A DNA stretch of 64,000 nucleotides from an uncultured virus (IMG/VR IMGVR_UViG_3300009605_000001) (Duplodnaviria; Heunggongvirae; Uroviricota; Caudoviricetes), in IMG/VR virus record IMGVR_UViG_3300009605_000001; one strand, 5' to 3'. Below, one piece after another: positions 4,553 through 56,900 of this stretch; position 1 is the first letter of the stretch; every line of letters begins with the position of its first letter. The notes under the pieces were generated by a model, which saw only the letters and a program-made list of their open reading frames with translations, had not been told where the DNA came from and made no database searches. A program made the translations under genes and the position numbers.

Positions 4553-4563
4553 GGTTTATTCTC

Positions 4564-17796: not shown

Positions 17797-17817
17797 GTTT
17801 TCTCCTTATTGTCTTTA

Positions 17818-26656: not shown

Positions 26657-26929
26657 CTACTCTGGTTCTGGAATTATTAAGGTTAAATTTAGGCCAGTAT
26701 CTGTTGGAACTCTTTGAACAACAAACTCTTTAAATAAATTAGCCATAAAAATAGACATTAGTGCCTCACTTGGGAACGAAAGATTCAAAACCTTTTCATC
26801 CTTACCCTGAAGGGCTAGTTTAACAGTGTACTTCAGGCCGTGTTCCATGTCAGCCTCACTTCCTATTAACAAATGAGTCATGCTTTCTCCTTTACGCAAA
26901 GAAATAATCTGATTGTAAAACTTCCTCAA
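26657..26929 (-). CDS. Hypothetical protein
   Basis: ORF after the RNAP gene; probable start MTHLL after AAAGGAG. Confidence 0.6.
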   Translation of the reverse strand: MRKFYNQIISLRKGESMTHLLIGSEADMEHGLKYTVKLALQGKDEKVLNLSFPSEALMSIFMANLFKEFVVQRVPTDTGLNLTLIIPEPE

Positions 26930-29333
26930 GCATAAGCTTGCCCCGTGTTGGAACGTCGGGAAGTTTAATTCCTAATTGGTTTTCAACCTCCTTCTTGAAG
27001 TTTTCTAGTTGGTTTGTCTTATGAATCTTAACAAACTCTTCTCTTAGTAGGTTTCTCATATCATCTATATAATTAGCATGGCACCCGAAGGAATCATGAA
27101 TCATACAGAGGTCTATTATACCACAGTCTATCAGTCTGTCAATAGTTAAAAACATATGAGCAGCATCTAAACTGTGTATAAAGTTAGGGGAGATAGCTTG
27201 TAAAGAATCACGCGGAGCCACATCATTTGTCTTAACATAGAATATAAGTTCCTTCTTGTTAAACAGATGAGCAAGAGATCTCCTCTTCTGTTGTTTATTA
27301 TAGAGGTGAACTACTTTAAACCCACTGGGGGTTGTCCACTCAACGTGTTTGTTAAGCTTGTTAGCTTCTTCAATAATAGATTTTAAATATTGTTTGCCTT
27401 TGTTTGGTCCACTTAATGAGCGGTCAAGGCTAGCTTTAATAGCTCGGGCCAGCTCAACAATAGCTGCACCCTTCTTCTCACGAGACACCCAGTCGAGGTG
27501 TCCCTCTTCTTTTAGGTATCTCTGTATTCCATAGAAAGTAAGACCATACGGTTCACACATTGTGCTGCGCTTTGTTACCTTCCTATCAATTTTATTATCC
27601 CAAAACTCTAGAAACTCACGATACCAATCGTTGTCGCTACTAAAGTTAGTGCAATAATCAGTAGTAACATCAGCTACATACTGGTATAGATCGTGCGGTT
27701 CGTCTGAAGGAGTTACCCCAGTCAGCTTAGCAATATCAGTGTCGCCCATGATAGAAGACCAGTGTTGGTTGCCGTTACATTTACCATCGATCTGTACAGG
27801 TACATAACTCATACCATCTTTCCTAGTAATGTCAAAGATCATTGCCAATCTTTGGAAAGACTTGTTCTTCTTCTTGGAATCATCAATCCATTCTTTATTT
27901 CCATATGGATCTTGAGATATACGTTCAATCATGTCCCAGTTATCGTCAACCCATTGTATTCTTTTATCAAAGGATACTTTATCTTGATCAAACAGGTTAG
28001 CTAGATATATTTTCTGCCAATACCTACCCCTCTCGGTTATCTTAACACCATTAGCAAACCTAATCATCCCCCTATCTAGGTCAGATGATTGGGGGGACAG
28101 CAACTCACAGGTTGTGTATGCCCTGCCCCTGAAATCTAGGGTGTAGACATGATAGAAAAACCCCCAAGGAATAAGATTCTCAGCCAGCTGAAGACGTATT
28201 AACATCCTTCCGCGAGCTTGTTCTTGCTTATACCAATCACTCCAAGCTTCCTCTTGGCGTTGACACCAGATAGCCTGTTGTTCTTTTGACCCATCTTTAG
28301 GGTACTCCTCATTATACATGAATTCTTCGAACGAAAAGTAGGGTAGATTAGCTAGCCCAGTATTGTTCTTAAACAGGGATTCCATCACCTCTACTACTGG
28401 TTCATTGATAGACCACTCTGTTTTCATCATGTGATTCAAACCCTTAACAACCTTTAAAGAAGGGCTCGAAAATTTTTGGTCCCTTTTTTGGTCTCCAAAG
28501 AAATTAGATCTAAACTTCTGGACCATAGGTTTCCTTAGGTTGGTATGTATATACCCACCTGTAGATATTGTAGTATGGTCTTCGGGGATAGACAACATAG
28601 GTCTATATATTAGTGTAGAGTTCTGAAGAACATCGTGTCTTTTGTGTAGCTCTCTAAGAACATCGGGATGAAACTCAACCGATAGAAATTTCTTATAAGA
28701 ATTACCTCGTTTTATCATATGAGAAGTTAAGATAATTATATTAGAAGAGGCAGCTATCCTAAGCATGTTATGTCCGAAGTCATGCCTTTGTTTAGTTGAT
28801 AGCTTAACATTTTTGTCCATCTTATCGGCAAATGCACGGCATCTCTTAGGTGTCCAGTTCTTTATAAACTTAGATTGTCTTAACCAATCATCTCTGTTAT
28901 CTTCCTTAGCTCTTTGGAACGCAATAATATCACAAGCGTCATGAGATATCTGTGTAGCTAAGGTTTGTGCTAGAGGGGGGATAACTTTATCCTTTTCCCA
29001 CCTGTATCCCCAGAAGGTACTAGAGAACCAGCTTCTAATCACAGCTCTTATAGTTATGTCAGCCATCTTCTGCGGACCCAGCTCAAGTAAGGGGTACAAC
29101 CATTGAGGTGACTTACTTGATTGACACACCCTATCAATCCACTCCTGAAACACTTCTCTTAGTTCTACAACAGAAGAATCAATAAGTTCTTGTTCAGGTA
29201 TGCCCTCATCGGGAGCGCGCTCATAGTCTGACCAATATCTAGACTTACCATACTCAAGCATCTCTTGTTCATACAAGATCTGCGAGTTCTTTCTCTCTAA
29301 CTTAGCGTCATCAGTTAAGGTATCCCATTTCAT
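26892..29333 (-). CDS. T7-type single-subunit RNA polymerase (canonical; RNAP-1)
   Basis: DFRGRAY; motif A DGKCNGNQH; motif B RKVTKRSTMCEPYG; PNFIHSLDA; motif C IHDSF; 813 aa. Confidence 0.97.
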   Translation of the reverse strand: MKWDTLTDDAKLERKNSQILYEQEMLEYGKSRYWSDYERAPDEGIPEQELIDSSVVELREVFQEWIDRVCQSSKSPQWLYPLLELGPQKMADITIRAVIRSWFSSTFWGYRWEKDKVIPPLAQTLATQISHDACDIIAFQRAKEDNRDDWLRQSKFIKNWTPKRCRAFADKMDKNVKLSTKQRHDFGHNMLRIAASSNIIILTSHMIKRGNSYKKFLSVEFHPDVLRELHKRHDVLQNSTLIYRPMLSIPEDHTTISTGGYIHTNLRKPMVQKFRSNFFGDQKRDQKFSSPSLKVVKGLNHMMKTEWSINEPVVEVMESLFKNNTGLANLPYFSFEEFMYNEEYPKDGSKEQQAIWCQRQEEAWSDWYKQEQARGRMLIRLQLAENLIPWGFFYHVYTLDFRGRAYTTCELLSPQSSDLDRGMIRFANGVKITERGRYWQKIYLANLFDQDKVSFDKRIQWVDDNWDMIERISQDPYGNKEWIDDSKKKNKSFQRLAMIFDITRKDGMSYVPVQIDGKCNGNQHWSSIMGDTDIAKLTGVTPSDEPHDLYQYVADVTTDYCTNFSSDNDWYREFLEFWDNKIDRKVTKRSTMCEPYGLTFYGIQRYLKEEGHLDWVSREKKGAAIVELARAIKASLDRSLSGPNKGKQYLKSIIEEANKLNKHVEWTTPSGFKVVHLYNKQQKRRSLAHLFNKKELIFYVKTNDVAPRDSLQAISPNFIHSLDAAHMFLTIDRLIDCGIIDLCMIHDSFGCHANYIDDMRNLLREEFVKIHKTNQLENFKKEVENQLGIKLPDVPTRGKLMLEEVLQSDYFFA

Positions 29334-31911: not shown

Positions 31912-31926
31912 TGTTGTTCTCCTTAA

Positions 31927-32000
31927 TAGCTCCGGTGGGACTCGAACCCACACTGTATGGATTTTAAGTCCACTGCCTCTGCCAATTGGGCTACGGAGCC
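31927..32000 (-). tRNA. tRNA-Leu(UAA), short variable loop
   Basis: GGCTCCG TAGCCCAATTGGCAGAGGC A GTGGA CTTAAAA TCCAT ACAGT GTGGG TTCGAGT CCCAC CGGAGCT A folds as a cloverleaf; no encoded CCA. Confidence 0.92.
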
Positions 32001-32003
32001 AAA

Positions 32004-32076
32004 CACTCCGGGCAGGATTCGAACCTGCGACCCACGGTTTAGAAGACCGTTGCTCTGTCCCCTGAGCTACCGGAGC
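32004..32076 (-). tRNA. tRNA-Arg(UCU)
   Basis: GCTCCGG TAGCTCAGGGGACAGAGC A ACGGT CTTCTAA ACCGT GGGTC GCAGG TTCGAAT CCTGC CCGGAGT G folds as a cloverleaf. Confidence 0.95.
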
Positions 32077-32080
32077 AGCA

Positions 32081-35716: not shown

Positions 35717-35788
35717 GAATGTTAGAGTAGTTTAGTGTCATGAGGCTTATATTGCCTTCCCATAGAGTTACCGCTCTTACTCAGGACA
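35717..35788 (-). repeat. Structured repeat, copy 1
   Basis: About 72-nt near-identical copy of 36481-36553. Confidence 0.85.
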
Positions 35789-36089
35789 AGTATATCGACC
35801 CATCCCGAAGGTTCCCGCCAAGGGTAGTGGCGCTATCATTCCTTATAAAGATGACACATTTGCTACTCTTGGCTGCATCTAAACCTCAACCTAGCCCCTT
35901 CAACCGTCCAACATTACTAGGCATGTCTATATAGTTCATAGTGCAGAGGATTAGGCTACACAACCGTCAGGGGTGGCTCAATTAGTCTCACTTGGCTAGC
36001 ACAATGCAAGCCCTAATGATACATCACATGAAGCGGTCTATGGCAGGGTCATGACTCCCTACATCCCTTTGTTCTCACACGTGTAAAAA

Positions 36090-36168
36090 TGGAGGCGGGC
36101 GGAGTCGAACCGCCGTCTTCGAGAGTCCGACATGCGGAGTTCTCTCGAATCTAAACCAAATCACCCCC
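36090..36168 (-). ncRNA. Mini tmRNA-like RNA (tRNA-like domain only)
   Basis: GGGGGTG ATTTGGTTTAGA TTCGAGAG-16 nt-CTCTCGAA GAC GGCGG TTCGACT CCGCC CGCCTCC A: G3:U70 pair, A73, stemless D-loop, P2-like stem, GAC linker, T-arm. Confidence 0.75.
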
Positions 36169-36480
36169 CATAACGCGGAAGCCAGCGTGCTACCAGTCAT
36201 AACACTACTAGGCCCAAGGTGCGACCTTGGCGTAACCTAGACAGGATTCGAACCTGTTCTACTGGACTCTCCTTGTTGATTGTTGACCGGCAGGATTCTC
36301 TATACCTGCAACCGAGAGATATCGTAAAGATATGGTCACCTCAGTACCAGCGTGATCCCAGTCAAGGGAATGCCCTAAACCACTTGGTCGTTGGGCAGAC
36401 TACCACAGTCTACGCTTGTGCCTTAGGCTCCGATGTCAGAAGCCTTATTCAGCCACGGTCTACCCCCGTCGGGGTGTGTT

Positions 36481-36553
36481 GAATGTTGGAGTAGTTTCAA
36501 GTCATGAGGCTTATATTGCCTTACCATAGAGTTACACACTCTTACTCAGGACA
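36481..36553 (-). repeat. Structured repeat, copy 2
   Basis: Near-identical to 35717-35788. Confidence 0.85.
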
Positions 36554-36719: not shown

Positions 36720-36751
36720 GAAGTTTGTCGAAAAAAGCAGATGCCCGTAGA

Positions 36752-37030: not shown

Positions 37031-37237
37031 AGACCTCCGTTAACCTTAAGTCTAACCTCAGGGTACATACACATAGTATGTAAACCCAATAACAATAACA
37101 ATACAGACAAACTAAGCTTCAAACTTAGCTCATACTATACTATTATACCCATGTATACCGCCCACGCACACAAGTGCTGCTCACACAGCAACTTACCACG
37201 TGCCCCGGCGGGCATAACAGAGTAAGGGATACTGAGA

Positions 37238-37341
37238 CAGGCGGAGCCTGAGCTAGTGTCCCACGGATTACAAGGCGGAGCCTAATCTATACTCCACAGT
37301 TGCACATACACGTTCCATATTATATATGCAGGGCGGAGCCC
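37238..37341 (+). promoter_or_regulatory. Three GGC-GGA-GCC triloop hairpins (N4 vRNAP promoter-like; + strand is the template for minus-strand genes)
   Basis: CAGGC GGA GCCTG (37238-37250), AGGC GGA GCCT (37273-37283) and GGGC GGA GCCC (37331-37341) in a non-coding gap. Confidence 0.55.
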
Positions 37342-37385
37342 CTGTAAAGACAGGCCACACTTGACTAATAAATAGTCGGTTCAGA

Positions 37386-37420
37386 AAAGCCCCCCTGAGG
37401 AATCTCACCTCAGAGGGGTG
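37386..37420 (-). terminator. Intrinsic terminator ending the first early unit
   Basis: CCCCTCTGAGG-loop-CCTCAGGGGGG followed by CTTTTCT on the minus strand. Confidence 0.75.
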
Positions 37421-37451: not shown

Positions 37452-38015
37452 CTACCACTTTACGCTGGCAACTGCCTTCTTTACCTCTTTGTCGGTTTCA
37501 TACAAAACCGCACACTTAGCAAACTCATTATCAAACCGTGATTCACAGGCCTTGATTGACAATTCCTTTGTCAGGCAGGGAATGGATTCGATAGTTATCG
37601 GATAACTCTGTATCAGTGTTTTCCCTCCTAAGGAGAGTCCGCATTTCTCACAGAGCCAAGTCGTAACAAACTTGCCATCAGAAGTCTTCGTTGTCTTGGG
37701 AGTTTCCAGTCTTCGCAGCAATCGAATGTACCGAAGGTTATTCGTGTCAAAGGATTCAATCATAAGATTGTCACCCTCAACTGTGAAACCAAGTTCGTCA
37801 CACTCTTTCTTTACGGAGACTGAATCAAGGGGGCGATAGCCGATGTAGGTGTGAAGCTTATCCACATCCACATTACCATCCAAAGAGATGATCCTAAGGG
37901 CTATGGTGCCTTCCTTGTTATTCACAATAGCATCCACAAGAAACGGGTTTCCGTCGGCATCCACTGCTTCACGCATGACATGCCTAGACGAGTGGTAGGT
38001 TTGTGAACCAGCCAT
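37452..38015 (-). CDS. Hypothetical early protein
   Basis: 187 aa, AAAGGAG RBS. Confidence 0.75.
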   Translation of the reverse strand: MAGSQTYHSSRHVMREAVDADGNPFLVDAIVNNKEGTIALRIISLDGNVDVDKLHTYIGYRPLDSVSVKKECDELGFTVEGDNLMIESFDTNNLRYIRLLRRLETPKTTKTSDGKFVTTWLCEKCGLSLGGKTLIQSYPITIESIPCLTKELSIKACESRFDNEFAKCAVLYETDKEVKKAVASVKW

Positions 38016-38135: not shown

Positions 38136-39968
38136 TCAGTCAATCGTGTCGAGATGGTGCATACGAATCACTGGTGGGATCATCTCAGCAATCTCAGCGT
38201 ATGATGGTCCACTCGGTGGCTCGACATCATTCGCTTCCCACAGAGGAGCCAACGTAGCCTCCATTGTGGGAATAATTCGCACCATGACATTACGAGCATT
38301 CTCAAAGAACCGCCCAACTCGACTTGGTTGAAGTAAGAAACCATCATGGTTGTCAAGTTGATGCCAATCTTGACTTTTGTTTTCAAGATTGAGCTCACTG
38401 TTGAAGTACGAATCATATATCGCGGCGAGGTGACAGCTAATCGATCCGAACATCTCAACCTCAAACGGTGTGTACGTTGCCTTGCCTTTCCTACCATTAA
38501 CAGAACCCCTAACTGTACGCTCTGGTTCTGTTGTCAGGCGGCTATAAGGCATGAAGGGAATTACTTGCCCATCACCACGAATCAACTCAATCATCTTGCC
38601 AGTGGTCTCGACGCAGTGCTCATTGGCATTACGTGAACGTTGTCCGAGAGATCTGATCTCCGGAATAACCTCATGCATAGCCGGAGCACCAACATTACGA
38701 ACCCACTTCTTGGCCACATCATACAGCTCTTCATACGTAACTGCGGCACGGAGTGTGCCCTTCTTGGTGAAGAGATGTACGAAATCGGGGTGTGTGGGCA
38801 CCCAACTCGGGTACTCAACATGGTCTAACAGGTAAACCCTGTCCTCTTGGTACAGCCGTTCCATCTTGTCTGGATCGAGACCCAAGAGGTGGGTTGCCAT
38901 GACAGCAACACCAGCCTCATACTGTCCGCCTCGTGCCAACCGTTTGGCGGTAGTACGTAGCGAATCATCCAACTCAATATCATTATCCATGGAGTTGATC
39001 CACCGACACATCTCGATATATGCGTCTCGCCGTTTGCCTCCGAAGAGATTACCCAGCCGCATACCAGACATACTTTTCTCAATCAACGCCTGAAACAGCT
39101 GCCCCGAACAACCCTGATCAAACTCTGCCGCAAGGGTTGTCTTCCCAGTTTGGGCATACTCTTTGCACTTCAACGCCACGCGAACGAGGCCGTATCCGTA
39201 CTTATCGATACACTGACTCACTGAGCCACAACTGAGAATTGCTTCCCAGTTGTTAGCGTGAAGACCTGCCATGCCATTCGTAATTGACCAGAACACATCT
39301 GGTGTACATTCTTCGGCATTAGCGAAATCAATAAGTCCCTTTGTATGGCTCTCTGTTTGCCATCCACAGTTACTCATATGATTGTATCGCCTTCCACGCT
39401 TATCGATACGCCTTACTGTTGGGTAGAACACTGAGTCGCCTACTCGCTTCAGTTCTTCAGCTACAGTTTCGAAACGTTCTGCATAGGCTCCACCATCCTT
39501 CGAATGGAATGCATCTGATCCCATCCATCCTTCAAGAAGCTCCATGCTGTAACGAAGCTGAGTATCAGAGGTCCACTGCATTGACTCTGTCATACGATCG
39601 CAGATCGGCATTACATTACTCGAACACCGAGTAACCTCAGGAGCCCAAAGGCCCGTCAGCTCTCGCCGTTCCGTCTGGATAATATGCTCTCGGTGTGGGT
39701 ACTCTGTCTGTTGCTGCCCAATGTAGAACTTACAGCAACTCTTAGCAATCTCGTGTTGCTGATCGTCTTCATCAGGGAACTGACGCTGTAACTCTTTGAA
39801 CTCCTGCGTTCCTTGCAGTTCCAGTTCTTGATGTGCAGGAATTACTAAGCGATCCACAGCATCTGACCCATCCCAACTGGAGGGCTTAGCGTGATATAGC
39901 ACACGCTTTACTAATTCCGAATCCCCCTCGACCAAAGGATTCACTAGGGTTGTGTTATCATATTTCAT
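38136..39968 (-). CDS. Divergent, N-terminally short single-subunit RNA polymerase homolog (RNAP-2)
   Basis: DKRGRRY, KGLIDFA, motif A FDQGCSG, DAY, motif B RTTAKRLARGGQY (K+8=Y) and motif C NHDGF, in T7 order; likely start MKYDN after AGGAG (about 610 aa). Confidence 0.85.
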   Translation of the reverse strand: MKYDNTTLVNPLVEGDSELVKRVLYHAKPSSWDGSDAVDRLVIPAHQELELQGTQEFKELQRQFPDEDDQQHEIAKSCCKFYIGQQQTEYPHREHIIQTERRELTGLWAPEVTRCSSNVMPICDRMTESMQWTSDTQLRYSMELLEGWMGSDAFHSKDGGAYAERFETVAEELKRVGDSVFYPTVRRIDKRGRRYNHMSNCGWQTESHTKGLIDFANAEECTPDVFWSITNGMAGLHANNWEAILSCGSVSQCIDKYGYGLVRVALKCKEYAQTGKTTLAAEFDQGCSGQLFQALIEKSMSGMRLGNLFGGKRRDAYIEMCRWINSMDNDIELDDSLRTTAKRLARGGQYEAGVAVMATHLLGLDPDKMERLYQEDRVYLLDHVEYPSWVPTHPDFVHLFTKKGTLRAAVTYEELYDVAKKWVRNVGAPAMHEVIPEIRSLGQRSRNANEHCVETTGKMIELIRGDGQVIPFMPYSRLTTEPERTVRGSVNGRKGKATYTPFEVEMFGSISCHLAAIYDSYFNSELNLENKSQDWHQLDNHDGFLLQPSRVGRFFENARNVMVRIIPTMEATLAPLWEANDVEPPSGPSYAEIAEMIPPVIRMHHLDTID

Positions 39969-40091
39969 GATAAACACTCCTGTGTGAGGGATTCTAAGGA
40001 TGACAGTACAAACACTCATCCTATAAAAGTGTCAAAGGCCTCCTCCGACCCGAAAGCCAGAGGAGGTATACTTCTCTTCTTCCAGCATTAC

Positions 40092-41459: not shown

Positions 41460-41631
41460 TATAGTACTCCTTTGGGTTGTGACCCCGAAGGGTCAGACCA
41501 TTGGCCTGTCTCATCAGTGCTGGGCGGCCAGTCCCAACAAACACCATACTCCTCAACCATCGGCGGTTGAGGACGTAGGGGGTGTTTCGACTATTCATCC
41601 GCAGTCGAAGCGGTGTCGAGTGCGTCAGGGT

Positions 41632-41817: not shown

Positions 41818-41926
41818 AGTATCACCTCCTGTGGGTTGTGACCCTACAAGGGTCAGGCCTTAAGGGGATAGGGGGGGAGGGCATACCCTCCACCTCATCC
41901 ATACCCACGGAGAAATTCTCGACCCC

Positions 41927-44900
41927 CTAGTCGATTATTCCCGCATCTCTATCGTACCTTCTTTGTTGTGCCTTACGTTCTCTATCCTCCCATTCGGGAC
42001 TCCCCACAGGAGCTCCTACAAGGCTCTCAGGAGCTCGCTCAGGCCGCGTCTCTCGGATAGCCCCCACTATATCTCGTCTCATAGGACGCGGTGTGGGGGC
42101 AGCAGGAGCCTGTGAGGGGACGCTAGGAGCGGTTGTCTTAGGAGCCGGTGCAGGGGTTGCTGCAGGATTGGGATATTGCATCTTAGGAGTACCTGTAGCA
42201 CCGGAGGGATTATACCCCTGAAGGAGTTGTTGTTGGATTGCTGGTGGGAGGTTTTCAAACTTAGGTTCCCACCCTAGTTCTCTAAGGATTTCTCGTAAGT
42301 CTGCGGCATATTGGGGTAAATTAGATGTCTCAGAAAAAGAACCATAGGTTGCCCATTTTTTGTTTGATGATTTAGCACCCCTGCTCATTGAGTTGTTTTG
42401 CCTTTGCCACTCTTCGCCCATAGCGGAGAAGAATATAATCCTAGTTAAGGCATCGCCTATAACCGGAAGTGTTCTCATTAGCATTACCATTGATGCCCAA
42501 TCTGTATCTTTTTCATCATCTGTCCAGCCATCTATCAGCTTCTTAACATTATACAAGAAGGAGTTCATTGCACCCACTGGTACAAATCCAAAAGCTTCTC
42601 GGTGTGTGTTTGCGTAGATACCTACTACGGTTTCCATAAGCAAGCCTATATATCTACCAAAGTGTGGTAATCTAGCCATCATAAACAATGATTGTTTAAC
42701 CGGGTCTTCTTCCCATCCCTCGATGATATCTTCTAAAGGATATCCTGCAGCTACAAGCAACAGTGACATATACAATGAATCAACCATAGCATATGAAACC
42801 CAATGAAGGGCGTTTCGTCTAAGGCTGAATCTTTGGTTTCTTCGTCCAACTTGCTGAGAAGCAAATAATACAGGATACCGCCTAAAGGTTTCAAAGATAA
42901 GATCCCAACTACTATTGCCCGTAGCTGTATCAAAGGGATTAGGGTCGACTAAGATTTCATGGATATATCTTTTTTCTGCTCTTCTTAATCCTGAAATTAT
43001 ATCAAGGTATTGTTTGTATTCTGGATCTGTAGTAGCCCACTGAGGACCGCCTTCCCATGCCTCACCTTTATTCAAATTAGTTAATAATCCTCCTAAGCTG
43101 TAATACTCATCTCCCTTAGGACTGTTAACCATCTTAGCAAGGATATCTACATTATCGTTTGTCAGAACACCCTCATTCATTAAATACATAATGTTTGCTG
43201 CGTCTGTTCCGGGCAGGCCTACTCTTGACATTAACTTAGAAATAATCTTACGCCCATCTACAGTATCCCATTCTTTAGGATCAACCTGCTTATGTAAACG
43301 CAAGAACTCTTTTAGCTTACTGCCATCTCCACCAACCGTAGCTTGCTGTAACCATCCTCTAAAGATCGTAGCTCGTGAGGTAGCAATCATTTGATGCAGT
43401 ATTCCTGCAAGGTGCATATTACGCTCACCTAACCACTGAGGTAACCTTTGATACCACTCCGACCTTACATCAATATCTGGCCGAGCATAGTCTGGTATCC
43501 GACCTTGGTTAAATATTCGGATAATCTCTGCCATATCTCTTGCAACATTCTTTCTAATGTTAGGATCAAGTCCCATAAGAGGGGCAACGGCAGCCTTAAT
43601 AAAACCACCCATACTACCTCGACCAAGTAGTTGATCAATCATATTCATAGTATTCTCTACTACAAGCGTAGCCATAGTAAGGTTTGTGCCAAAGACAATT
43701 CTAACAACATCTGGAGCATATCTTGTAATAAAGTTTAGAGTTTCATCGGCTGAGTCTCTATTACTTTCCTGTTTACCTAAAATAGTATTATACTTGATCT
43801 CTAATACACCCATTGCTTTAGTAAGTATATCACTGTCTTTAGCACTTATACGACTACCGTCACTATTAAAAAGATTACCCATACCCAGTACATTCCTAAA
43901 GATACCTAACACATCGCCAGTAGTAGCCTTAATCCCATACTTATCCATATACATAGATTGCTCTGCAATCCTCTGCCCAAGATGTTTCATGATACCATCT
44001 GAAATTGTTTCTGGCCCCCAGACAAGCATATCTGCAATCGCAGGATTATTCATAACTTCGTGGACCGGAGGAATAGCCCAATCATTAGAGAAGTATATCT
44101 TTCGTCCAGCACCATTCATAATGTTTGCCACATGAACACTTACAGGACTGCTGATAGTAGGAGACTGCTGTCTTGCGGATTTTCCTTCAACGACCCCAAG
44201 AGTCGCAAGTCTGGAATCTATAGACTGACCTCTAAGTATATCTAGACGAGCTTGATTAGGTTTCTTTGCCTCAGCCCTATACTTACTCCACCAACCAGCG
44301 GTAATTCGTGTGTTTTCACTATTAAACCCCAAGTAGTCAGCACTAAACTTATTCTTTTTGTATCGCATATACCTCATAATTTGAGCTATAGCTGGTATAA
44401 CATAGTTAACATAAGTATTGTGTTGTTCAATAGTAGAAGTTTTATTTGTAAGTAAGCTACGGTATTCTTCATTTGTTTTAATACTTGCAAGTCTAGTTAG
44501 TGTGCTATCATAAGATGTGCTTCTTTCGCTCTGGCGTTGCCTCATTAATTCGGCCATTGCCATAATTTCTTTCCAGAGTTGTGGGTTCTTAGTTTCTAAC
44601 TCAGCTAACTCTTTTAGCCCTACTTCGGGATCAGCCAAATGAGGAAGCTCGCCCATTGCGTATAAAGTATAAGGACACATTCTTCTTGTTTTAAGATCTA
44701 TATTCTGAGATTCCGTAACAATACGATCTCCAATAACCTTACCCATTTCTTCTCTAAAGTTATTATAAACCGGCTGATCTTGTACCTTAGCATTCGCAAA
44801 CATAAAAGGAATAGCTTCATCAAAAGCTCTATCCATAACACCTACTTCGACCCCCATATGGTTTACAATACCTAGTAATGCAGCATAGTTAGTTACAATA

Positions 44901-47900
44901 TTATCTGCTTCCTTTCTTAGCTCTGTGCTGTTTACAAGCAATGCATCCGTGTACTCATACGCTTCTCCTGCCATTTGTTTTACTAACTTAGTCCACACTT
45001 CTTTAGCAAAGGTATCTCTTGTTTTCTCGTTTCCGGCAGTATTCCCTAATACCTGAGTTCTAAATCGAACGGTTGATTCAATAGGCCCAATAATATCATC
45101 GTAGACTCTTTCCATAGAGTTTCTAATCTCAGTAGATATTTGGTCAATCTGCTGAACAGAACCTAAGACATGGGGTATGCCATCCATATTACCCCAATGT
45201 CCTGCCATAGTACTCATTGAGTTGTCAATCATTGTTGATAACATAACAAGTAAAGTAAAGGGAGAATTCCAAGTAGCACCGGATTCAGTACTACCAGTAG
45301 CAAGCATAGTCATAAACTGTTTTACTTTAGAACCAATACCACCCGGCCTGTTAAAGTAAGGAAGCTGCTGTATTGCCTTAGTAGCTTCAGCCATAAAGCG
45401 TCCGTCATTCCCCCGCATCATTTTAGTCATATCCATCAGTATCTGTGTAGCAAGAATCTGTTGATCATGAGGAGTACCTTCAACGAATATTCTCTTAACA
45501 TCAAGAAGATCTGGACCATATGTTTCAACTGAGAAGTCCCCGCTTCTAACACTATATTGATTCTTAAGGTTTTCCCGACCTATAAGGAATTCACCTGTAG
45601 TAATACCAAGCGGTGTTATTTTATTACCGCCAAGAGTATCACGCCTATTCTCTAGCTGACCACGCTCCTTACTCAACTCCTCCCACTCCTTTTCAAACTT
45701 TCCGGATTCACTTTCAGGTGCCTCGGGAGTATAGAAGTTATGGTGTATAGCGTCCTCTAATTCACCCATTCTTCTCTTAACTTCATCAAGAGATTGTAGG
45801 GTAGCTAGTAATTCGTTCTCTGTATTCTCCACCGTAGATTGTTGTTGTGTTCCTTCTGTAGACATATACAGCGGTCCCATATCAGGGTTACCTACATCAG
45901 CTATCGTATTTCTACTTGTCTTGGTTGCATCCTGTCCTAGAGTTCTTCTGATTAAGTTAATGGCTCTTTCGTATTCAGCTGGCTCGGTTGATTTAAAGTC
46001 TGAGAATACAGAAGATACTCTATCTAATATCTTACCAATAAAGGCAAAGATTTTATCAATTATGGTTTGTGTCTTTGCAAAGAATCCCGCTTCTTCGGAA
46101 GTTAGAGGAGTATTGGCTTCAACCTGCCTTAGTAATTCTAAGGAATCGTGTACTAAATGATACCCTGTCAGGGCCGCAATAAACTCTTCGCCCGTAGTAT
46201 CGTTCATAATTCTAGCATACTCATCTTGAGCAGCCTTATTCCACTGGCCGTTATGGAAAGCCATAACAAGTTTCTTCAGTGTTCCGCCACCCTGTTTACT
46301 CCGCTCGCGTAAGAATAACGTTCTCCACTCTCTATAGTGGTATGAATCATTCTCGATAAACATCATTCTACCAATATGGCCAATCTCCTCAGCCACTAAA
46401 TACGCCACACTTAATGCATCTCTTCGCCCAACTAATTGATTACCAATTCTAATTGTATACCTACCACCTGATTTTTCTGCGGATCCTCTTCGCTGTTTCC
46501 CAGAATTATCAACCCACTCACTATCTAAGAATTCAAAATTAACCTCAAGAACCATATCAGGAGCATACTTAAACCACTTACCAAGAATTGCTCTTATCAT
46601 TCTAGCTTGAGCCTCAGAAAGGCGACCACCGTCAACAGCCTCTTTTATCTTAAGGGATAGTTTACCCAACTCAGGAACAGCAGATGAGAAGTTATCGTGA
46701 TTTCGAAGATCTCTGCTTTTAAGATGCAGCTCATTAAATAAATCCGGATCTCTATCAAACACATGAGTATCTAATACAGAAGCTAATGCCGCCTCTGCTG
46801 AAGAATGCATCTCGGTAGACATATCTTCAATATCATATATCTCCTGCAGATAAGCAAGGAAGTCAATAGTAATATCGGAATCACCAGAAACAGTACGTTC
46901 TCCCTCGCTAATCTGATCTACGTATGATCTAGCATCCCAATAAAAATCATTAAACTGTTGACTATCGGTTGCATTTAGGATTGACATAAGCTGATTAAAC
47001 TCACCCTTAACTCTAAGGTAAGCACTAGAAACATCAGCATCAAACTTTTCTTTTTCTACCGCTGTTTCTCGTGACATCAGGGGGAAGAATACTCTAACCT
47101 CGCCCATCTCAATATCGGGTTGCCGTAACATAAGCCCAAGTATAATAGCTCGTATGGTTGCTGGGTTTTTAATATTCCCATCAGTTAGTTGTAGTGTAGT
47201 TACAAGGAGTTCTTGAATAGTTCTATGCTCAAGATCAACCCCATCTGTATACACATCCATATAAGATTCTCTAACCCCAGTTAGATCATGAATAAGACTC
47301 AACCCTCTTGAGTTAGCTTGTGAGTGAGGGCTACTATGTTCCATTTCTATATTCCAAGTTGGAACAATAGTTTTAAAGGTTGTCTTTGCTTTTCCTTTTA
47401 CCGTCCCTCGGAACGGTCCTTCAGAGGCAGCCTCAATATCAACCGGCGTTGTTCGTCTAACTAATTCCTTTAGAATTTTTTCGTTAAACTCTGCATCTTC
47501 TGAAATATATTTGGTATATAGATCCATAGATGCTTCCGGCGATCTTTCATTTATCTCCGCAATTTTTCTTCTAATTGCGTCAGCCTGTATAGGAGATCCA
47601 GCACGCTCAAAAGCTAAACTCAAATCTTTCTCGGTAACCACTACTGGTTCACCATTAACTCGCGTGCCTCTCTTTTTTAAGGCAGCAGCAAACATACCCT
47701 CTTCACTCTTCTCACCGAGTTTTAATCCTTTAAGCAAACTATTTAAAGTCCAGTTTAGACTTTGTGTAATGTCACCACCTAAAAACTTAGAATCAGCGAG
47801 CATGTTGTTTTGCATTAAGTCAATACTAAGTTCAGCAACTATCTGCGCAGTATTAAGATCATTAGCAAGGATACCTAACTTTCTAAGGTCAAAACTATTT

Positions 47901-50900
47901 CCATTATAAGTAACTACCTTGCCTCCCGCTAATAAATGCTGCTTCAACATCTTTAATAAAGCTCTAGCTTCACTTCCGCTTACTGAACGAGTAGGCGAGA
48001 AATGCTTACCCTTTTTAAACCCCACTCTTCCTGCTGCTTCAAGTGTTCTTTCAACACCACCAATACCTACAATACGTTGTTCCAAGTCCATCGTAGTTTC
48101 AATATCAATAGATATAACATTATCTGTATCGTATATCCAATTAGGGTTGCTTTGGATTTCAATAATATTAGCTGCTTCAGCTTCATCTAAACCTAGCGAT
48201 GTTAAGATTTCTACTGCTTTGGTAGGATTATGTTGAGACCACATAGTTCTTTCTGGTGCAGCCCTAGCCATAATATTCATCTCAAGCAAACCTAAACTAG
48301 ATAGTCTCTTCATAGCTGTAGTAATTGGAGAGATTAAAGACTCAATAAAGAAGGGTAATGCATTAGGTCTAAGTCCAGCATCTGGTCTATAATAATTAAT
48401 CCAGTCTACAACTCTAGGTTTAATATTACCAGATGAACGAGAACCATCAACAAGCATATGAGCAACGGTGTGTCCTGATTCAACACGATCTACTATAATC
48501 TCCATTGCTTCACTTAAGACTCTTTCTCTGTTCATCTTTTCAGTTTCACTGTAGCCGAAGTAATCAGCCATCTCTTCAGCATCAGATCGAACTAACTCAG
48601 GCTTACCTTCGGCATTAGATCGATAGCGACCTGTTGGCTTGTTGGTACGCATCGCGGTTTCTATTCTTTCGATAAAAGGATAGTTCTTATGTGACGAAAG
48701 CATCAGTAAAGCACCCATTGGTGTAATACCGAGTTTCATGTTTGTTCCGATTACCGTTCTTGGAACTCTCATAAGCATAGTAAAGGGGCCACCCATAGGA
48801 TTACGTAAAATCATTTTATCAGTACGTTCATCCTTCGTTGGCTGCTGCTGTATTAACTTAACAAGGTCATTTCTACCCTCAACACTCTCTACAATAAAAT
48901 CAAAGGAGAATACAGGATCATTTGCTAGTACAGCTTTCTCTCTAGCTACATTAATAATAGCTTCTCTGTGATCTGGAGGAATAGCGTTAAAGGATTGTAT
49001 ATCTCTTTGATTAGCAATAACTCTTAATTGTTTCTTTAGTGCGGGCTCCTTAACAATACCTATATATGTTTCTATAGCTTCAGATATATACCCATCCCAC
49101 AGTACTCCTACAAGAAACTCCAACTCATCCACAGACTGAACAAGTAAGGGATGTATGGCCGTCTCTTCTAGTTTAATTGTTTCGCCCGGATTAACCCCCT
49201 CTTCAATTATAAAGTGCTCTGTAGGAACTAAGCTTTTTTTCAAAGCTTTGTGAATAAGGGTTGGTCCGGATAAGACAGAGAATGGATTATTCTCCGAATA
49301 TGGACTTGTCAGGATATCATATAGCGTTCTATCTGCTAAGTCTGGATTTAAAATACCAATTTCATGTCCCTTAGTTTCCATAAGTAAGGAAGACATCTCT
49401 TTGTATCTAATATCCCGAGATAATTGGAACAGCGCGTGGAATCCTTCGAGGTATGTATTACGGGCTTGTAGTAGTTTCTCTTCGTTAGTTAGTCCTTTAT
49501 CTCCATAGCGTACAGCAGAAATGATCTGGTCCATTTCATGTTCAAGTTTTTGATCAAACCTATATACTAAATACAAGTACGGTACCATTTCTGGATCAAG
49601 CATCTCTGCCTCAAAGCCACGTTCTATTGCCCACTTACTCATCTTCATCTCAACAACATTAGCTACCATCTCAGGTGCATTAGCATCTAATCCCATAAGA
49701 TAGTCTAGATAATCAGACTTAACATCTGGACCCATTGGAAGAGTTTCTCTATTCCAAGGTTTCTCGAATCCTCTACTAGTTACTGGAATTAAGTGATCAG
49801 GGTTTTCTAAGGGTTGGTCTAACATAGCCGATACTTCTTCAATAGGACTCATCATCTCTCGTTCAGCGGCATGATAAGCTTTATTCTGAAGGTATAGGTT
49901 GCCCTTATTGTGATAAGGCATTCTCCTAGTTTCAGGAGCCCAAGACATGTATCCCCTTGGTTTGTCTGTAGACTCGAATACCATATCTTCTGTATCGTGT
50001 CGTAGTTCTGTCATTGTATGTTCTGCGGACCCTCTGAAGGTCATAGGATGTCCTGCGACTGGGACCAGTAAACCTATACCCTTAGAGAAATAATCTATGC
50101 TTGCTTGGTTTCGAGAACCATCAGCATTCCTAACACTATCTTGTTGTAGTCTTTGCGCATTAGTATGATCTATAGCAGCTTCTTGAGAATGCTCCCACCA
50201 CTGACTCAATACTTCGGCTTCGAGTTCATCCATATTATCTTCAGCTTTATATTTTGACAGAGGCGGCTTCTCGGGTTCTGTAACTCTAAGAAGCATTTCA
50301 TTTCTCATCATAAGAACAGCAATAGTATGATCCATTCTCTTGTGCCACTCCGCTACTTCAGCGTCATTATCAAAATCAACCATTCTCATTATGGGGTTGC
50401 CATATTTATCTAACCTTACCTTCCCATTTTTATCCCTAACCGGAATCTTTTGATGAGGATTATCTTCCATTCTCCACTGACCCAACGGAGATTCGCCTTC
50501 TACGTCTACAAATACTTGCTTACCGTTTACATATTCGTAGGGATTTTCAGACCACTCCATGATCTTTCTACCAATCTTAGCAGGGTTATCCCAATCTTCA
50601 TCTCTAATCTCTTCTGCTACGAAACTTTTAAACGCATCTTGATTAGTTTGGATTCTAGCAAACATCGTGTTGTGATGGTGTCTATTCATATTAGAACTTG
50701 CAGAATAGGTTCTATAACTCTCAAGACCGGGTAAGAAGATTTGATACAGAATAAAGTTCTGAATTCCAAGAAGATCTTCTTCATTAAATCTCTGGTGATT
50801 AGTTGCTGCTTGTGCCTTTAATACATCTACAGCAACTCTGAACCCCGTAGAGTTTACTGTATTTAATGCTCTGAATAATTGATTATGTTTCCAGTGCATA

Positions 50901-53900
50901 CCCTTTGGTTGCAGTAATTGGCCAACCTCTTCCCTTTCAGCTAAAGTTAGCTTTCCTCCTTCTCCCGACTTTGCCCTAGCATCTGCTTTCCTAATGATTG
51001 CGTCAGCTTTCATCAACCTACTATTCTTATACTTCTCCTTAAATGCTTCTACAGTCATCTGAACTCTTTCGCCATCCGGTCCTATCATCATCTCACGCTT
51101 AGCTAACATAGCAATATTTAGATCCAGTTGTCGGCGTAAATAATCTCTTTTCATAGCGGGGTTATTTTGATCTGTTTTCTTAATCTCCTTGTTCCGCATA
51201 CTCTTTACAGTTGAAATCCAATCTGTTATATGCCTATCTGTCATGTTTTCGTGCATCGACAGAATTTTTCTTGCTTCTTCCCGAAGACCCTCAATACCCA
51301 AAGCTACATCAATAACAGCAGCGTTCTCACCCGCTATATGGTCAAATATAGAATGTCCAAACAAAGCCATAACATGTGATATACCTTCAGATTGATCCTT
51401 AAAATTAAAACCAAACTCTTGCCTCAGCCTAGTCAGGATACCTACAAACATTGGATCGGTTTGTAGTTCTACCCAGCCTTTCCATCCCATAGTATATAGC
51501 CTACGCATAACTTCTGGTTTCCAGAATTCACGCATCAGCTTCATCTTCCTAACCATATCAGGATCAGAGCCTTCATTACTAACGTAATCAGTATACTTAG
51601 TATGATCATCGATTCCCAACGTAGCTAACTGATCATAAAACGTAACCATTGGAGAGAGAAGTTCGCCATATTCTGGGTGTGCTAAAGCCTTTCTTCTAAC
51701 GGTTTCAGCAAAACCTAAACCAGCTCTGATATAATAATCTTCAGCCTCAATAGACATATTCATTTTATTCCTTAACTCACCCATAGCGGTAATAGCTGCT
51801 TCGCTACCGAGACTTAGAATCTTAGTTACAAATAAACCATTAAACTTCTTATCCAAGTAAGTCTTTGGTGAAAGGATCCTTTTATAGAACTCTGGGTTTT
51901 CCCAATACTTTGGCCCAAACTCTTTATAATGTTCTTTTGCATAGGCTTGTTCTGCTTCGGTAGCCTGTTGAATAACATCATTGGCTAATCCTTCTAAGTG
52001 CATGTTCATGCTTTCTAAAGCAAGTATAGAAGAAATACCACTCATTGGAACAATAGTAGGTAAGCCTGTAGTAAGCTCAGGGTGTATCATTTTAAAAGCT
52101 GCATCACCCTCTGAAGTATAGACTAACCCCGGACCAGCCGCCCAACGAGCATCATGGAGGAAAGCATAAGCAATATTTGCTGTATCTAATAGAACCTCAG
52201 AAAGAATATTCTTAAGTTCTTCTCTAGTAGTAATTCTATCGTTTAGTCTTACATTAATAATAGGAGGCAATAACCTAGCATCTGGTTGAAGACTTCTAGA
52301 AACAGGTCTACCCGGCACAGCACCATCTTTATCTTCTAGATAAGCGTTGTATTCTATAATATCGTTCTCATCAATCTCTTCTGTAAAGATAAACTCTAAT
52401 CGTTTCCTTACAATAGCATCTTCAATCACAAGAGCAACAGCCTCAGGTCGTTCTGGAGCAAAGGAAGTCATGTGTCCCCGTAACATCGGGTGTGTCCGGA
52501 CTGTCTCTCCTTCTTGCGGCTCATCAAAACGATTCTCTTCTTTTCTTTCTGATCTATATTCTGGGGATTTTCGTCTCTTGGTAACTATTTCTTTAGTTTT
52601 TAGTCTGGTTACTAAAGCAAAGTCAACCAGTTCCCAACCAAGCCGTCTTGCTGGTTGCCAGCCCCGAGTACCGTCCCCCATACTAATGATCTCGTCTCTA
52701 GTAATTAGGGTGTGTTCATTATCACCCTCTGCAAGCCTATCAAGAATTATACTAGCTATTCTATCTAGGTCTTTTAAGTCTTCTGGAATCTTAAAGTAAG
52801 CATATATATCTTTCTTCTGTCTTTGAGATTGCATAAAGAGTACTTCTAATTGCTCAACTATACCCTTTCTAACCTCCTCAAGATATTTCATCTCTGCTTC
52901 TGCTCTTGATTCCGGATCATCTAGATCAAAGGTAATTGTTTGGTCAAGATCGGGAGAAAGATTATCTGTTAAATCAATTAGGAAACCATACTGATTAAAC
53001 AAATCATCATCGACTGCTCTCGACGCTTTCATAAGTCTATCGGTAAACGCAATGGCAGTATATAACCCAATCTTAGATTTAGGATCTCTATCATAAACCA
53101 TAACATCTTCTTCTGTAGCCCTAGTTTCAGCATTCTTTGCTATTACTGCCTGATGTGCCGTGTCTCGTTTTTTGATAAAGGTTACTAATCCTTCATCCCC
53201 CTTGAAGTCATGCAACAGACTTTTTAAAAGGTTCTTAGGAAATCCACCTTCCCCTGCTAAAGTAAGGGCTCGAACATCCTGTACAAACCCCCAATCTGTT
53301 AGATCTGGGCTAACGAGAGTCTTCCCTTCAGCTTCAAGGCGGTTATTGATGCCCGAGATATATCTAAATAATCCTAACTGACCTTCTTCTGACTCGAAAG
53401 CCTTAAAGAGTTTGTGTATAATTTGCCTTGCTTCTAGTTCGTTAATACGGCCATCCTGAAGTGCCGTCCTAATTTCTGCAACCCATGAATTAGCTTCGTG
53501 GATTCTCCACTTCTCCCCCTTTTCCTCAATCCTCTGAAGAACCTTTTGAACCTTTGCATCACCTTCTTTCGCTACAAGTCTCCGTCCTCTAATGCGGCGA
53601 ACTAAGTCTGTGAGAGACTCTTTTGAGATTGCTTTAAGATCACCATTAGCTCTCATTATTCTACGAGTAACTAAGGCAATAAGTTTATCTAATCTAACAA
53701 ACAAAGTATCATACTCAAGACTCAAATCTTCCATCGTTCTGTTACTAGGAAACTCCTCGCCTTCTGCATTAACAATAACTTCTCTAAAGACTGCATCATA
53801 GATACCATCTGGGAGACAACTATCAACAACGAAGATTGGAACCAATCCTACTTCAGGATCTAAGGCTCTACCCCACGGTCCTTCAAGTACAGATATTAAT

Positions 53901-56900
53901 TGCGAATGAAACTCTTGAAGTGCCATCAACTCTTCTGCTAATGTAAATGCATACTCTTCAGGAACTATTCCTCTATCTATACTTTCTTTGTTTATCGCGG
54001 TTTTGTTTGCAGCTTCAGTATTAGTTCGATCAATAGCTGGAGCTTCTGTAGCTTGGTTAATCCCCCACTGAGAAGCAGTAATTGGCCTGTTACTTACACG
54101 ACTCCAATTAACATCTTTGAAGTAGTTCCTCTTAATAGACTTTATATATGTCTCTCGTTCTTTAGCAGCCTCTTCAAATATAGCTAATGCTTCTTCCTTA
54201 CTATAAACAATTGGATCCTCATCGCTATCTGCTCTCTCATCTATTTCTTTCTTAACCCTGTCTTTGGTAGCACTTTCAGGTAAGAACGCTCCTAATAAGT
54301 CTTCAGCAGAAATAGTCTCTGTGGTTTCGAGTTTCTTTGTTAATACATGTCTTCGTATTGTTAAAGTCTTTAGTTCTTTATTACGATAATCTAATACTGC
54401 CCTGATTGTTTTCAGCTGATAAGACGCAAAACCATATTTCCTAGCCATATCTAGTTTGTATCTTAAGGATATCTTTTCACGCTTTCTATCTAACCTCTTC
54501 ATATCCTCTTCTAATTTCTCCAATTGTCTATATTCATCTGAAGGTTGAATTACCTTAGTAAATATTTCATTCTGCATTCCAATAAGACCCAAAGCTAATG
54601 CTCTTAAGTCATCAAGCTTAACCCGCCCACTCTTTATACCTTCTAGGAGACTAGCTTTATTTTTTTCATTACTCTTTATAGTTTCCCATGTCTGTACAGC
54701 CTCTTCAAGATCGGCCCATTCTTCAGGAGAAACATCATTCTTATCCATTTCCCCCTTTTGTCTCCACTTTGGGTGTTTCCCTGCTTCTGCTTCTGCCGCA
54801 ATCGTATCAACAAAGGTTTTACTTAAGGTGCCAACTACTAGAGAAAGTTTAGATATCCTTTTACCCTTTTCACCTACATACTTTGTATCAATAGCATCTC
54901 GTATCTCTTTAACCTTTTCAGTTAACTCACCGATCTCCTTCTTTACGTCTCTTAAAGCTTCACTATCGGATTCAACATCCTGCCACGCAGCAATACTTTC
55001 ATCAAACTCGGAGATTAACTCGTCCATTTCAGCAATAAGTTCGTCAAGTTTATTCCTTATTTTTGGATCGGTAGTTCCTTCTCGTTCTTCTTCAAGAGCT
55101 GCCTTAAGGCTTTCAGCTTCCTCTTTCTCTTTTGTTGTTTGGACAACTGCGGATTGTTGCTCTCCTTCTTGTGCTCTAAGACTATCTATCCTAGCGTTTA
55201 CAAGACCCTCCCCCTCAAGATCTTTCTTTCGCCATGCTTCCTCTTCTTCAGTTAGTTTTTTGTCGGCAATAATCTTCTTAGCAATACGATCAGAAATCTC
55301 CCAGTCAGTCTCTGGAACCTTATCAGTTACCTCCTTGATCTCAGCATCAATCTTTTTAATAGCTACAGTAAGTTGCCTAACTGTTTCCTTCTTACTTGCA
55401 AAATCTTCAAGTTCAAACAACTCTTCTACCGTAGTAACTTTTTCTCTGTCTATCTCAACTTTTTCCATACCCTTTTTTCTCTTGTGAGATATTTTACCAG
55501 TCTTAGAGTGCTTCCAATAAAAACCCATACGAAATATTTCACCAGCAAAGGATTCTACTATACCGGTAATTTGTGCTTGTATCTTACCCTTCCTCTCAAC
55601 TTTATCTTGTATCCCCGCCATTGCCTTTTCTCGTTCAGCTTGAGCTACTCCAGCCTCCTTTAGTCTCTTGGCTCTTTTTCTCGCCGCCCTCATTAGGCTA
55701 ACCTTACGTCTAAGTGTAGACGGTTTTTTTGGAGCTAGCTGTGGTGACTCCTTTATCTGTTTTTTAATAATACGGTCTACTGCTTCTTTATGCTCATTAT
55801 ATATCTTCTCTTCTTCCTTAGTTAATGTCACATCACCTCTTTTTTTAATAGCAATATCAACTAAGACAGAATCTTCCTCCTCCTCCTTCGCTTGAATTAA
55901 AGAGTCAACATCTTCAGCCTTTTGTTTAAGTCTTTCTAACTCTGTTGTATTAGCCTCTAAAGAAAGTTTAAGTTTCTCTTCCTTTTCTCTAAATTTTTCC
56001 TCAACCTCAACCTCAATATCATGAACTACTTTAAGCTTTTCTGCAGCTGTGGCTGTATCAAAATTAAGTCCTTCTTTATCCATCCTCACACGAACCATAC
56101 TCTCTACATTATCATCAACATATATTTCCCAAAGATCTTCATCAGAAATTTCATCTGTTTGATTAAGCCACTCCTCTGGGGTAAAGTTAGTTCCGTTTTC
56201 CTCATTCAACTTACGTACATATCTTGCCACCCGAAGCCTAGTTTTTGCTATAGCTGTACGTTCTCCTAGTTGTTTAGCTAAAGTCTGGGCTTCTGGTCCT
56301 CCTAATCTTTGAATTAGTCTATTAGCAATCTCATCTAGAAGTACATCATCAGATATCTTCTCCCCATCCAAATCATTTTTAATTTCTTCTAACAGACTAA
56401 GAATACTGGTTACATCATCATATGTATTAACCCCGTCTCTGATCTGCCAAGGATCAAGAACAAAACCAAGAGGTCCATCCATTAAATCATTTAAGTCAAT
56501 ATCTCCACCTTCTTGTCGAATAGAGTTTAAGGAATCAACGACTGAATCACCTAACTCATAATGCTCTATAGCTGCTAAGATAGGATTATCACTACCCCTT
56601 GCGGCTGCCTTCCAAGCTTCTGTAATACTAGACCTAAGTCTAGCACCAAGTGGAAGACTCATAATACCTTGACCAATTATACCACCAGCTGCTGAAAGAG
56701 GAGCGTTTACTGTATACTTCATAGCTGTTCCAAGGATTGGGTTTGCTACGACAGAGAACACAGCCTCCATCTTTGCTTCAGCCCAGATACCACCTAAATC
56801 ATACTCATCAATAAACCCTCTTTTAATTTTCAAAGTTTGGTTTATACCTTCAGCTAAAGCACCCTCAACGAAACCCTCTCCTGCATTAAGAGGAGAACTA

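Follow-up and report, generated by a model that had tools for sequence, protein, structure and literature searches.

In the literature returned by our search, N4-like phages are the only ones for which hairpin promoters have been described. The virion RNA polymerase (vRNAP) of N4 recognizes a hairpin on the template strand with a C:G closing pair, G at -10, a purine at -11, A at -12, G at -8 and C at +1, situated in the 10% of the genome that enters first (PMC4496689). The N4 promoters lie at 96, 565 and 4554 in record EF056009, P1 falling within 100 nt of the genome end. For the N4-like phage LUZ7, the published study places two early starts in tandem at a distance of 33 nt, with starts lying 13-14 nt from the loop, and describes the RNAPII promoters as GC-rich hairpins with loops of 3-4 nt (PMC9163698). 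A rule has also been formulated for DNA mini-hairpins, GCGNAGC / GCGNNAGC, with a GNA or GNNA loop and GC-GC or CC-GG closing; among triloops only GNA forms them, and they are found at the G4 origin and at RSF1010 ssiA and bind SSB poorly (PMC13037366).

Three mini-hairpins on the template strand

The first-pass annotation of the window (the whole 64,000-nt stretch of uncultured virus DNA analysed here) drew attention to three C-GGA-G hairpins in about 100 nt of non-coding DNA, likened them to N4 vRNAP promoters and placed them on the template strand beside a terminator. The physical part of this description was borne out. The core GGCGGAGCC occurs three times on the + strand, at 37240, 37274 and 37332, and nowhere else in the window, as compared to a mean of 0.13 and a maximum of 2 in 100 dinucleotide shuffles. 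The complementary flanks proposed for it (CAGGC/GCCTG, AGGC/GCCT and GGGC/GCCC) form perfect stems of 5, 4 and 4 bp in copies 1, 2 and 3, and the stretch is non-coding, lying between one ORF that ends at 37452 and another that starts at 37030. All identified genes are carried by the - strand, so that the + strand with its GGA loops is indeed the template, and a terminator-like stem is found next to the cluster (Table 1).

Hairpin 2 is spaced 34 nt from hairpin 1, and all three copies satisfy the mini-hairpin rule. Copy 1 folds better on the template strand than on the coding strand both in the window phage and in its relative L140, with G-T wobbles that fit the template, whereas for hairpin 3 the folding program favours a 6-bp stem with a 6-nt loop instead of the mini-hairpin. 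The four sequencing runs compared list no difference within the hairpins, these data being unable to show starts or ends, and no RNA dataset is listed among 24 runs, all of them contigs.

Table 1. Position, strand and nature of the features considered in this study.
Feature	Coordinates	Strand	Description
Hairpin 1	37226..37262	+	5-bp C-GGA-G mini-hairpin (37238-37250) atop a longer imperfect stem
Hairpin 2	37266..37287	+	4-bp C-GGA-G mini-hairpin (37273-37283) with a bulged 4-bp extension
Hairpin 3	37331..37341	+	4-bp C-GGA-G mini-hairpin
Intrinsic-terminator-like stem	37390..37418	-	closes the RNAP-2 operon
Sigma-70-like promoter match	37319..37348	-	11/12 match; hairpin 3 in spacer
Linear T7-type promoter candidate	37140..37157	-	family motif; 80 nt downstream of the hairpins
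Linear promoter motif, second copy	17813-17830		before the ribonucleotide reductase gene
RNAP-1	26892..29333	-	full-length 813-aa T7-type RNA polymerase
RNAP-2	38136..40019	-	627-aa T7-family RNA polymerase, short N-terminus, DxRGR and A, B, C motifs
187-aa ORF	37452..38015	-	after RNAP-2; 28% identical homologue in L140 only
Giant protein	41927..58006	-	5,359 aa, 2 cysteines
C-run-TA-C-run and family motif	41864..41936	-	resembles the left ends of T7, T3, SP6, Syn5 and phiKMV
Pause/concatemer-junction-like motif	36731..36742	-	single-copy family motif; resembles the T7 class II pause signal

When compared to the N4 rules, all three copies agree in template strand, C:G closing pair, -10G, -11G and -12A. 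The -8G is likewise present in 3/3 window copies, is C in the L140 orthologues and is G in 7/13 hairpins of the family described below. The starts predicted by the annotation at 37233, 37267 and 37325 are arithmetically right for the N4 spacing of 11 nt from the loop centre, but the template bases found there are T, A and T, and no copy follows the +1C rule (0/3); RNA would begin with AG at hairpin 1 (start 37233) and with U at hairpin 2. The bases at -4 to -1 read AGAG, CATT and CGTA as opposed to the C after AAAA or ATAA of N4, and a pyrimidine occupies +1 in 9/13 family hairpins. The likeness to N4 promoters holds for the loop, the closing pairs and the strand, fails for +1C and the A-run, and is equivocal for the -8G. 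In both the window phage and L140, copy 1 combines a stem interruption at -4 with a purine at -1 and template T and C at +1 and +2, an arrangement compatible with the geometry of N4. The LUZ7 spacing and RNAPII hairpins imply that exact N4 spacing is not required and that a compact polymerase can be the reader. By analogy, the window hairpins, which fall outside the strict N4 promoter family, may yet work in a similar manner.

Conservation in L140 and the wider family

L140 is syntenic with the window, its RNAP-1 being 74% and its RNAP-2 39% identical, and keeps hairpins 1 and 2 at the identical 34-nt spacing. All 11 of the 11 base pairs compared are kept through five double changes and one single change, a score reached in 13 of 500 shuffles of this two-sequence comparison. 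The hairpin 2 orthologue shows three double compensations, but its loop is AGA. Hairpin 3 is absent in L140; at the corresponding position G008 has a hairpin with a GAA loop and G009 one with a GGCA loop. Stems are similar within one phage and different between phages.

Further relatives were found via a conserved motif after the giant gene, which yielded 14 viral loci, 12 of them with a downstream RNAP-2 match and two of these 12 corresponding to this phage. For the family count, the intergenic region behind the RNAP-2 operon was cut from 14 sequences, of which L189 was dropped as mis-cut, leaving 13 syntenic regions; L178, which nearly duplicates L186, was left out, as were L179 and L183, lacking a comparable region, and L190 and G005, whose contigs end before it. 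C-GN(N)A-G hairpins with stems of at least 4 bp number 13 on the template strand versus 1 on the coding strand in the 13 regions, as they do over all 14, for which 500 shuffled sets gave a mean of 0.59 and a maximum of 4. When the window is removed, 10 hairpins persist in 5/12 regions, or 6 in 3/12 if triloops alone are counted, the four-base-loop class having been admitted post hoc after inspection of G009 and its three GGGC-GGYA-GCCC hairpins. Hairpin-positive relatives fall into about three related groups, so that p-values for the excess overstate independence, and 7/12 relatives carry no C-GN(N)A-G hairpin of at least 4 bp despite their common gene order. Conservation in related phages, which the annotation had made a test of its proposal, is borne out by compensation in L140 and by the template excess, and not by these seven relatives.

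All 13 family matches satisfy the mini-hairpin rule. Closing pairs are GC or CC in 13/13 of them versus 25/35 other C:G-closed hairpins, and of 108 perfect hairpins, the two loops seen most often are C-GGA-G (5) and C-GAA-G (4), the loops of N4 P2/P3 and P1, respectively. Half of the hairpins outside the window (5/10) admit a second reading, as cUNCGg loops of the coding strand on shorter stems, which the window's three do not. A genome-wide scan for stem-GNA-stem hairpins had been suggested as a check: over whole genomes, C-GN(N)A-G hairpins are not in excess on the template. Nor are they in the stretch before RNAP-2, where 15 sequences totalling 20.3 kb have 5 on the template versus 10 on the coding strand, with none on the template in the window, and a genome-wide count of SSCGNAGSS in five relatives was uninformative. 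Nucleotide matches of the hairpin region to cultured phages were none or at chance level. A scan of viral sequences for two GGCGGAGCC cores gave 119 stretches, mostly coding or unrelated repeats, and among those with paired stems only this phage was recognised as a relative. Separately, four unrelated viral contigs (L007, L009, L058 and L085) carry tandem repeats of C-GGA-G hairpins with 8-bp stems about 27 nt apart. We conclude that the three hairpins are genuine and that selection maintains them as DNA structures of the template strand.

Candidate polymerases and their possible promoters

The phage is T7-like and not N4-like, encoding portal, capsid, scaffold, tail tubes, primase-helicase, DNA polymerase and an 813-aa RNAP, and the runs that cover it best are marine metagenomes. 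Between the primase-helicase and DNA polymerase genes, a 226-aa ORF (21825-22505) gives a weak sulfotransferase-family match (E 3e-4). The genome seems to encode three RNA polymerases; our literature search, covering titles and abstracts with subscription papers thinly represented, gave no match for a second RNAP, or for three of them, in a T7-like phage. RNAP-1 is about 27% identical to its closest cultured matches. RNAP-2, a single chain with 14 cysteines, contains all catalytic motifs, and a two-sequence profile matches T7 RNAP (E 0.002); its match to N4 gp16 is weak (probability 19), and searches of PHROG and Pfam with the 627-aa ORF gave nothing. By its motifs and its homology to T7 RNAP, this ORF is a T7-family single-subunit RNAP. 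The 187-aa ORF that follows it is a possible cofactor; no Drc/gp2 homologue was identified in this phage.

The third candidate is the giant protein, whose homologues carry 0-2 cysteines, as compared to none in N4 gp50. Conserved residues D2052, D2090/Y2092 and R2159/K2163/Y2171 span motif A to motif B, and D2052, Y2092, R2159, K2163 and Y2171 are invariant in 16/16 aligned rows (15 distinct phage sequences, one row being this phage again). The same 16 rows show no conserved aspartate after motif B and so no canonical motif C. D1952, located before motif A, is invariant; it is also the sole conserved HD-type aspartate, 100 residues ahead of that motif. The D1952/D2052 arrangement would, if catalytic, represent a permuted C-A-B palm. 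When a low-confidence model of this domain (pLDDT 55) was compared to 48,161 chains, the top two were T7 RNAP (residues 537-689; Z 6.1, rmsd 3.1, 100 aligned) and mitochondrial RNAP (Z 5.6, rmsd 3.0, 90 aligned), both below Z 8, and N4 vRNAP was not listed. Neither of two models gave a Foldseek match, nor was there an Atlas match or a Pfam, PHROG or PDB sequence match for this domain. No profile match to RNAP-2 was found; comparison with N4 mini-vRNAP gave an hhalign probability of 0.1 and no HMM match, and tblastn against 50,697 phage records gave no match. On these sequence and model comparisons, the giant protein is RNAP-like with a putative activity. Elsewhere in this protein, residues ~3320-3420 weakly match RNase_H_2 (exonuclease-like; Pfam, E 0.001), and an EEIGH string at 3873-3877 resembles a zinc-protease motif.

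Several signals surround the hairpins. The RNAP-2 operon ends 50 nt before the first of them. Sigma-70-like matches of this quality are frequent by chance (16 found versus 11.4 expected), and the -10-like box of the one overlapping hairpin 3 is conserved in L140. A 13-nt string at 37363-37375, able to form a 5-bp hairpin, is identical in L140 despite diverging flanks. The linear motif downstream of the hairpins originates from a Gibbs search forced to one site per region in 13 regions, is weak in G002 and G006, and has an information content of 15.4 versus 12.4-12.6 in shuffles. It varies per phage and is also found before the ribonucleotide reductase gene in G002, G003 and G004, whereas matches with 3 mismatches are at chance level in the window (4 versus 1.97). 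A general search of repeated non-coding 15-mers revealed no promoter family. The linear motif, which the annotation did not mention, is a candidate T7-type duplex promoter, most simply for RNAP-1.

Structured RNAs are also present: a manA RNA, a tmRNA piece, a type II hammerhead ribozyme and two tRNAs at 36280-36475, 36087-36168, 41500-41592 and 31926-32077, with additional strings resembling a tRNA T-arm at 36256, 35708 and 35537. A 73-nt element without Rfam match occurs in two copies of about 90% identity on the - strand (35717-35788 and 36481-36553), and similar CCUGAG...AAAC-URCUC elements with apparent paired changes exist in G003, G006, L186 and L187, making it a possible undescribed structured RNA.

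The annotation had proposed that the hairpins are promoters for the giant-protein RNAP or for RNAP-2. What stands of this proposal is that RNAP-2 is real, that the giant protein has an RNAP-like segment, and that the hairpins are conserved by compensation in L140 and in excess on the template strand of the family. Promoters for a phage single-subunit RNAP are accordingly our leading reading of the three mini-hairpins, held tentatively and at a little less than even confidence. Its weaknesses are the missing +1C and A-run, the U start of copy 2, the C at -8 and the one AGA loop of L140 (outside the GNA mini-hairpin rule), the hairpin-free majority of relatives with positives in a few related groups, and the coding-strand alternative available to half of the outside hairpins. 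T7, T3 and phiKMV moreover carry a template C-GAA-G hairpin and are not known to have a virion RNAP.

RNAP-2 is slightly favoured as the reader, a role that we consider possible rather than probable, since its operon ends so close to the first hairpin and no hairpin precedes RNAP-2 itself; the idea that hairpins of this kind promote RNAP-2 transcription finds none upstream of its gene in the window. The fast divergence of RNAP-2 beside phage-specific stems speaks for the promoter reading, and T7 promoters right behind the T7 RNAP gene offer a precedent. The giant protein, cysteine-poor like gp50, is a somewhat more doubtful reader: the RNAP-like segment agrees with the annotation, and the lack of profile similarity to gp50 and of a motif C after B does not agree with an N4-type enzyme. 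The GC-GGA-GC mini-hairpins can form only on the template strand, and their pairing is preserved in relatives. In N4, hairpins of this type are extruded by supercoiling and resist SSB, the opposite strand being melted, and the window copies would behave likewise. An N-terminally short polymerase might then dock on them and start leftward 11-15 nt from the loop, and the transcripts could drive the small ORF, the RNA cluster, early genes and RNAP-1, which would in turn use the linear promoter at 37157-37140.

Genome ends, other readings and known systems

T7 packages its right end by a promoter-and-pause mechanism. The hairpins could be genome-end signals at which no polymerase starts, a reading not raised by the annotation, which we hold to be less likely than promoters but a serious alternative and the strongest of the rivals. 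It would make the block from ~41905 to 36743 a long terminal repeat and its last 700 nt a counterpart of the T7 right-end module, with phage promoter, small gene and concatemer-junction pause; the hairpins, resistant to SSB, would flag single-stranded intermediates on which the terminase acts or from which the repeat is duplicated. The C-run motif itself lies at 41877-41864. In 5/5 reference T7-like phages a C-run-TA(G/C) motif is found 25-29 nt from the left end, and in 12/13 family loci the C-run follows the conserved motif by 34-36 nt, which suggests that the left genome end may lie near 41905. In T7, a class II pause signal sits at the concatemer junction (PMC11617373). ATCTGTT occurs near the left ends of T7 (161), T3 (232, directly after the annotated 231-bp repeat), SP6 (174) and Syn5 (238), and a similar motif in 13/15 family sequence sets, usually once; the window copy is a candidate right boundary. 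The block between the end motifs measures 5.2 kb here and 3.4-4.1 kb in seven relatives (3.4-5.2 kb in 8/8 measured), and is more GC-rich than the preceding DNA in 8/8 (49% versus 41% in the window). We regard it as a candidate long terminal repeat with inferred termini, carrying RNAP-2 and, near its far end, the hairpins. Near-complete contigs ending inside the block were not counted as support, strain variation explaining them equally well.

Template C-GAA-G hairpins of 5-7 bp are also found near the left ends of T7 (L206, 75), T3 (L207, 87) and phiKMV (L210, 83), inside the annotated repeat in T3 and phiKMV. The reference phages nevertheless have one hairpin, further in for SP6 (360) and missing in Syn5, as opposed to three with a common core here; a search of titles and abstracts found no paper assigning a function to the T7 repeat hairpin. 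The linear promoter, located downstream of the hairpins in the window and in L140, would therefore not transcribe them there, and in G006 the pause-like motif precedes RNAP-2, breaking the repeat order. The promoter and genome-end readings are not mutually exclusive, N4 P1 also being within 100 nt of a genome end. A cascade of three polymerases might combine them, in which the compact one-chain RNAP-2 in a 3-5 kb terminal repeat (or a giant ejected protein whose polymerase core would have its second aspartate ahead of motif A) starts at GNA/GNNA mini-hairpins derived from the left-end mini-hairpin of T7, T3 and phiKMV; we advance this scheme with low confidence.

A replication-origin role, the annotation's alternative, is improbable. 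Hairpins on unwound DNA by an AT-rich tract would not be covered by SSB and could direct a primase, or a primer-making RNAP, to its place, consistent with the SSB-poor mini-hairpins of the G4 origin and RSF1010 ssiA (PMC13037366), with the long imperfect stem of copy 1 and with a region that is AT-rich in relatives and holds a phage-promoter candidate. GC skew is monotonic through the region, weak evidence against an origin, and a fork moving with transcription would probably leave the hairpins on the leading-strand template, wrong for a T7-type primase; a primer made by an RNAP would merge this role with the promoter reading. It is more improbable still that the signal is RNA hairpins, with the DNA loop as a by-product, in a leader or small RNA whose transcription begins at the sigma-70-like promoter match (37348-37319). 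The conserved -10-like box, the abundant structured RNA downstream and the cUNCGg option of 5/10 outside hairpins agree with this, but a UNCG loop is impossible in all three window copies, the coding strand of copy 1 folds worse in both phages with wobbles that fit the template, and hairpin 3 would be upstream of the start. Palindromic duplex operators for a dimeric phage protein, for example one shutting the promoter around copy 3, are the least probable: the position of copy 3 in that spacer and the core common to the three copies would suit them, while a dyad leaves unexplained the one-strand bias of GNA/GNNA loops and the switch between 3- and 4-nt spacers, and no regulator family appeared among the 51 proteins scanned. 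GGA hairpins may also call to mind CsrA-type GGA-loop RNAs, an identity that we rejected, the strand being wrong and one L140 loop being AGA.

If the hairpins are promoters, a T7-like phage would show a single-subunit polymerase switching between duplex and hairpin recognition, and the differing stems of the window and L140 would provide short orthogonal polymerase-promoter pairs testable with oligonucleotides. The cascade, if true, would link T7 genome ends to N4-type promoters. Were the genome-end reading true instead, it would highlight a conserved template mini-hairpin at T7-type ends and unusually long terminal repeats carrying a polymerase.

When compared to described systems, the hairpins share with T7, T3 and phiKMV a template GNA triloop with GC or CC closing near a concatemer-junction-type motif, and differ in having three copies and a candidate 5.2-kb polymerase-encoding repeat instead of one copy, a GAA loop and short repeats. 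With the G4 origin and RSF1010 ssiA they share the GCGNAGC / GCGNNAGC stability rule and imperfect longer stems (PMC13037366); those systems involve single-stranded genomes or strands and a DnaG or RepB' primase, in contrast to a dsDNA podovirus with a T7-type primase-helicase. LUZ7 (PMC9163698) resembles this locus in its tandem hairpins (33 nt apart there, 34 nt here), GC-rich stems, 3-4 nt loops and nearby compact T7-family polymerase, and differs in a heterodimeric RNAPII (RNAP-2 is one chain), middle stems of at least 6 bp and G starts. The GC-GGA-GC core is identical to that of N4 P2 and P3, with the same C:G closing pair, 4-5 bp stem and template strand; both genomes encode a cysteine-poor giant protein, and the cluster lies 4.6-4.7 kb from the inferred left end, as P3 lies at 4554. 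Unlike the N4 promoters, the window copies are without +1C or A-run, stand within 100 nt of each other instead of being spread over the genome, and follow a compact RNAP gene where P3 precedes the RNAPII genes, in a T7-like genome with a third RNAP and a giant protein not detectably homologous to gp50.
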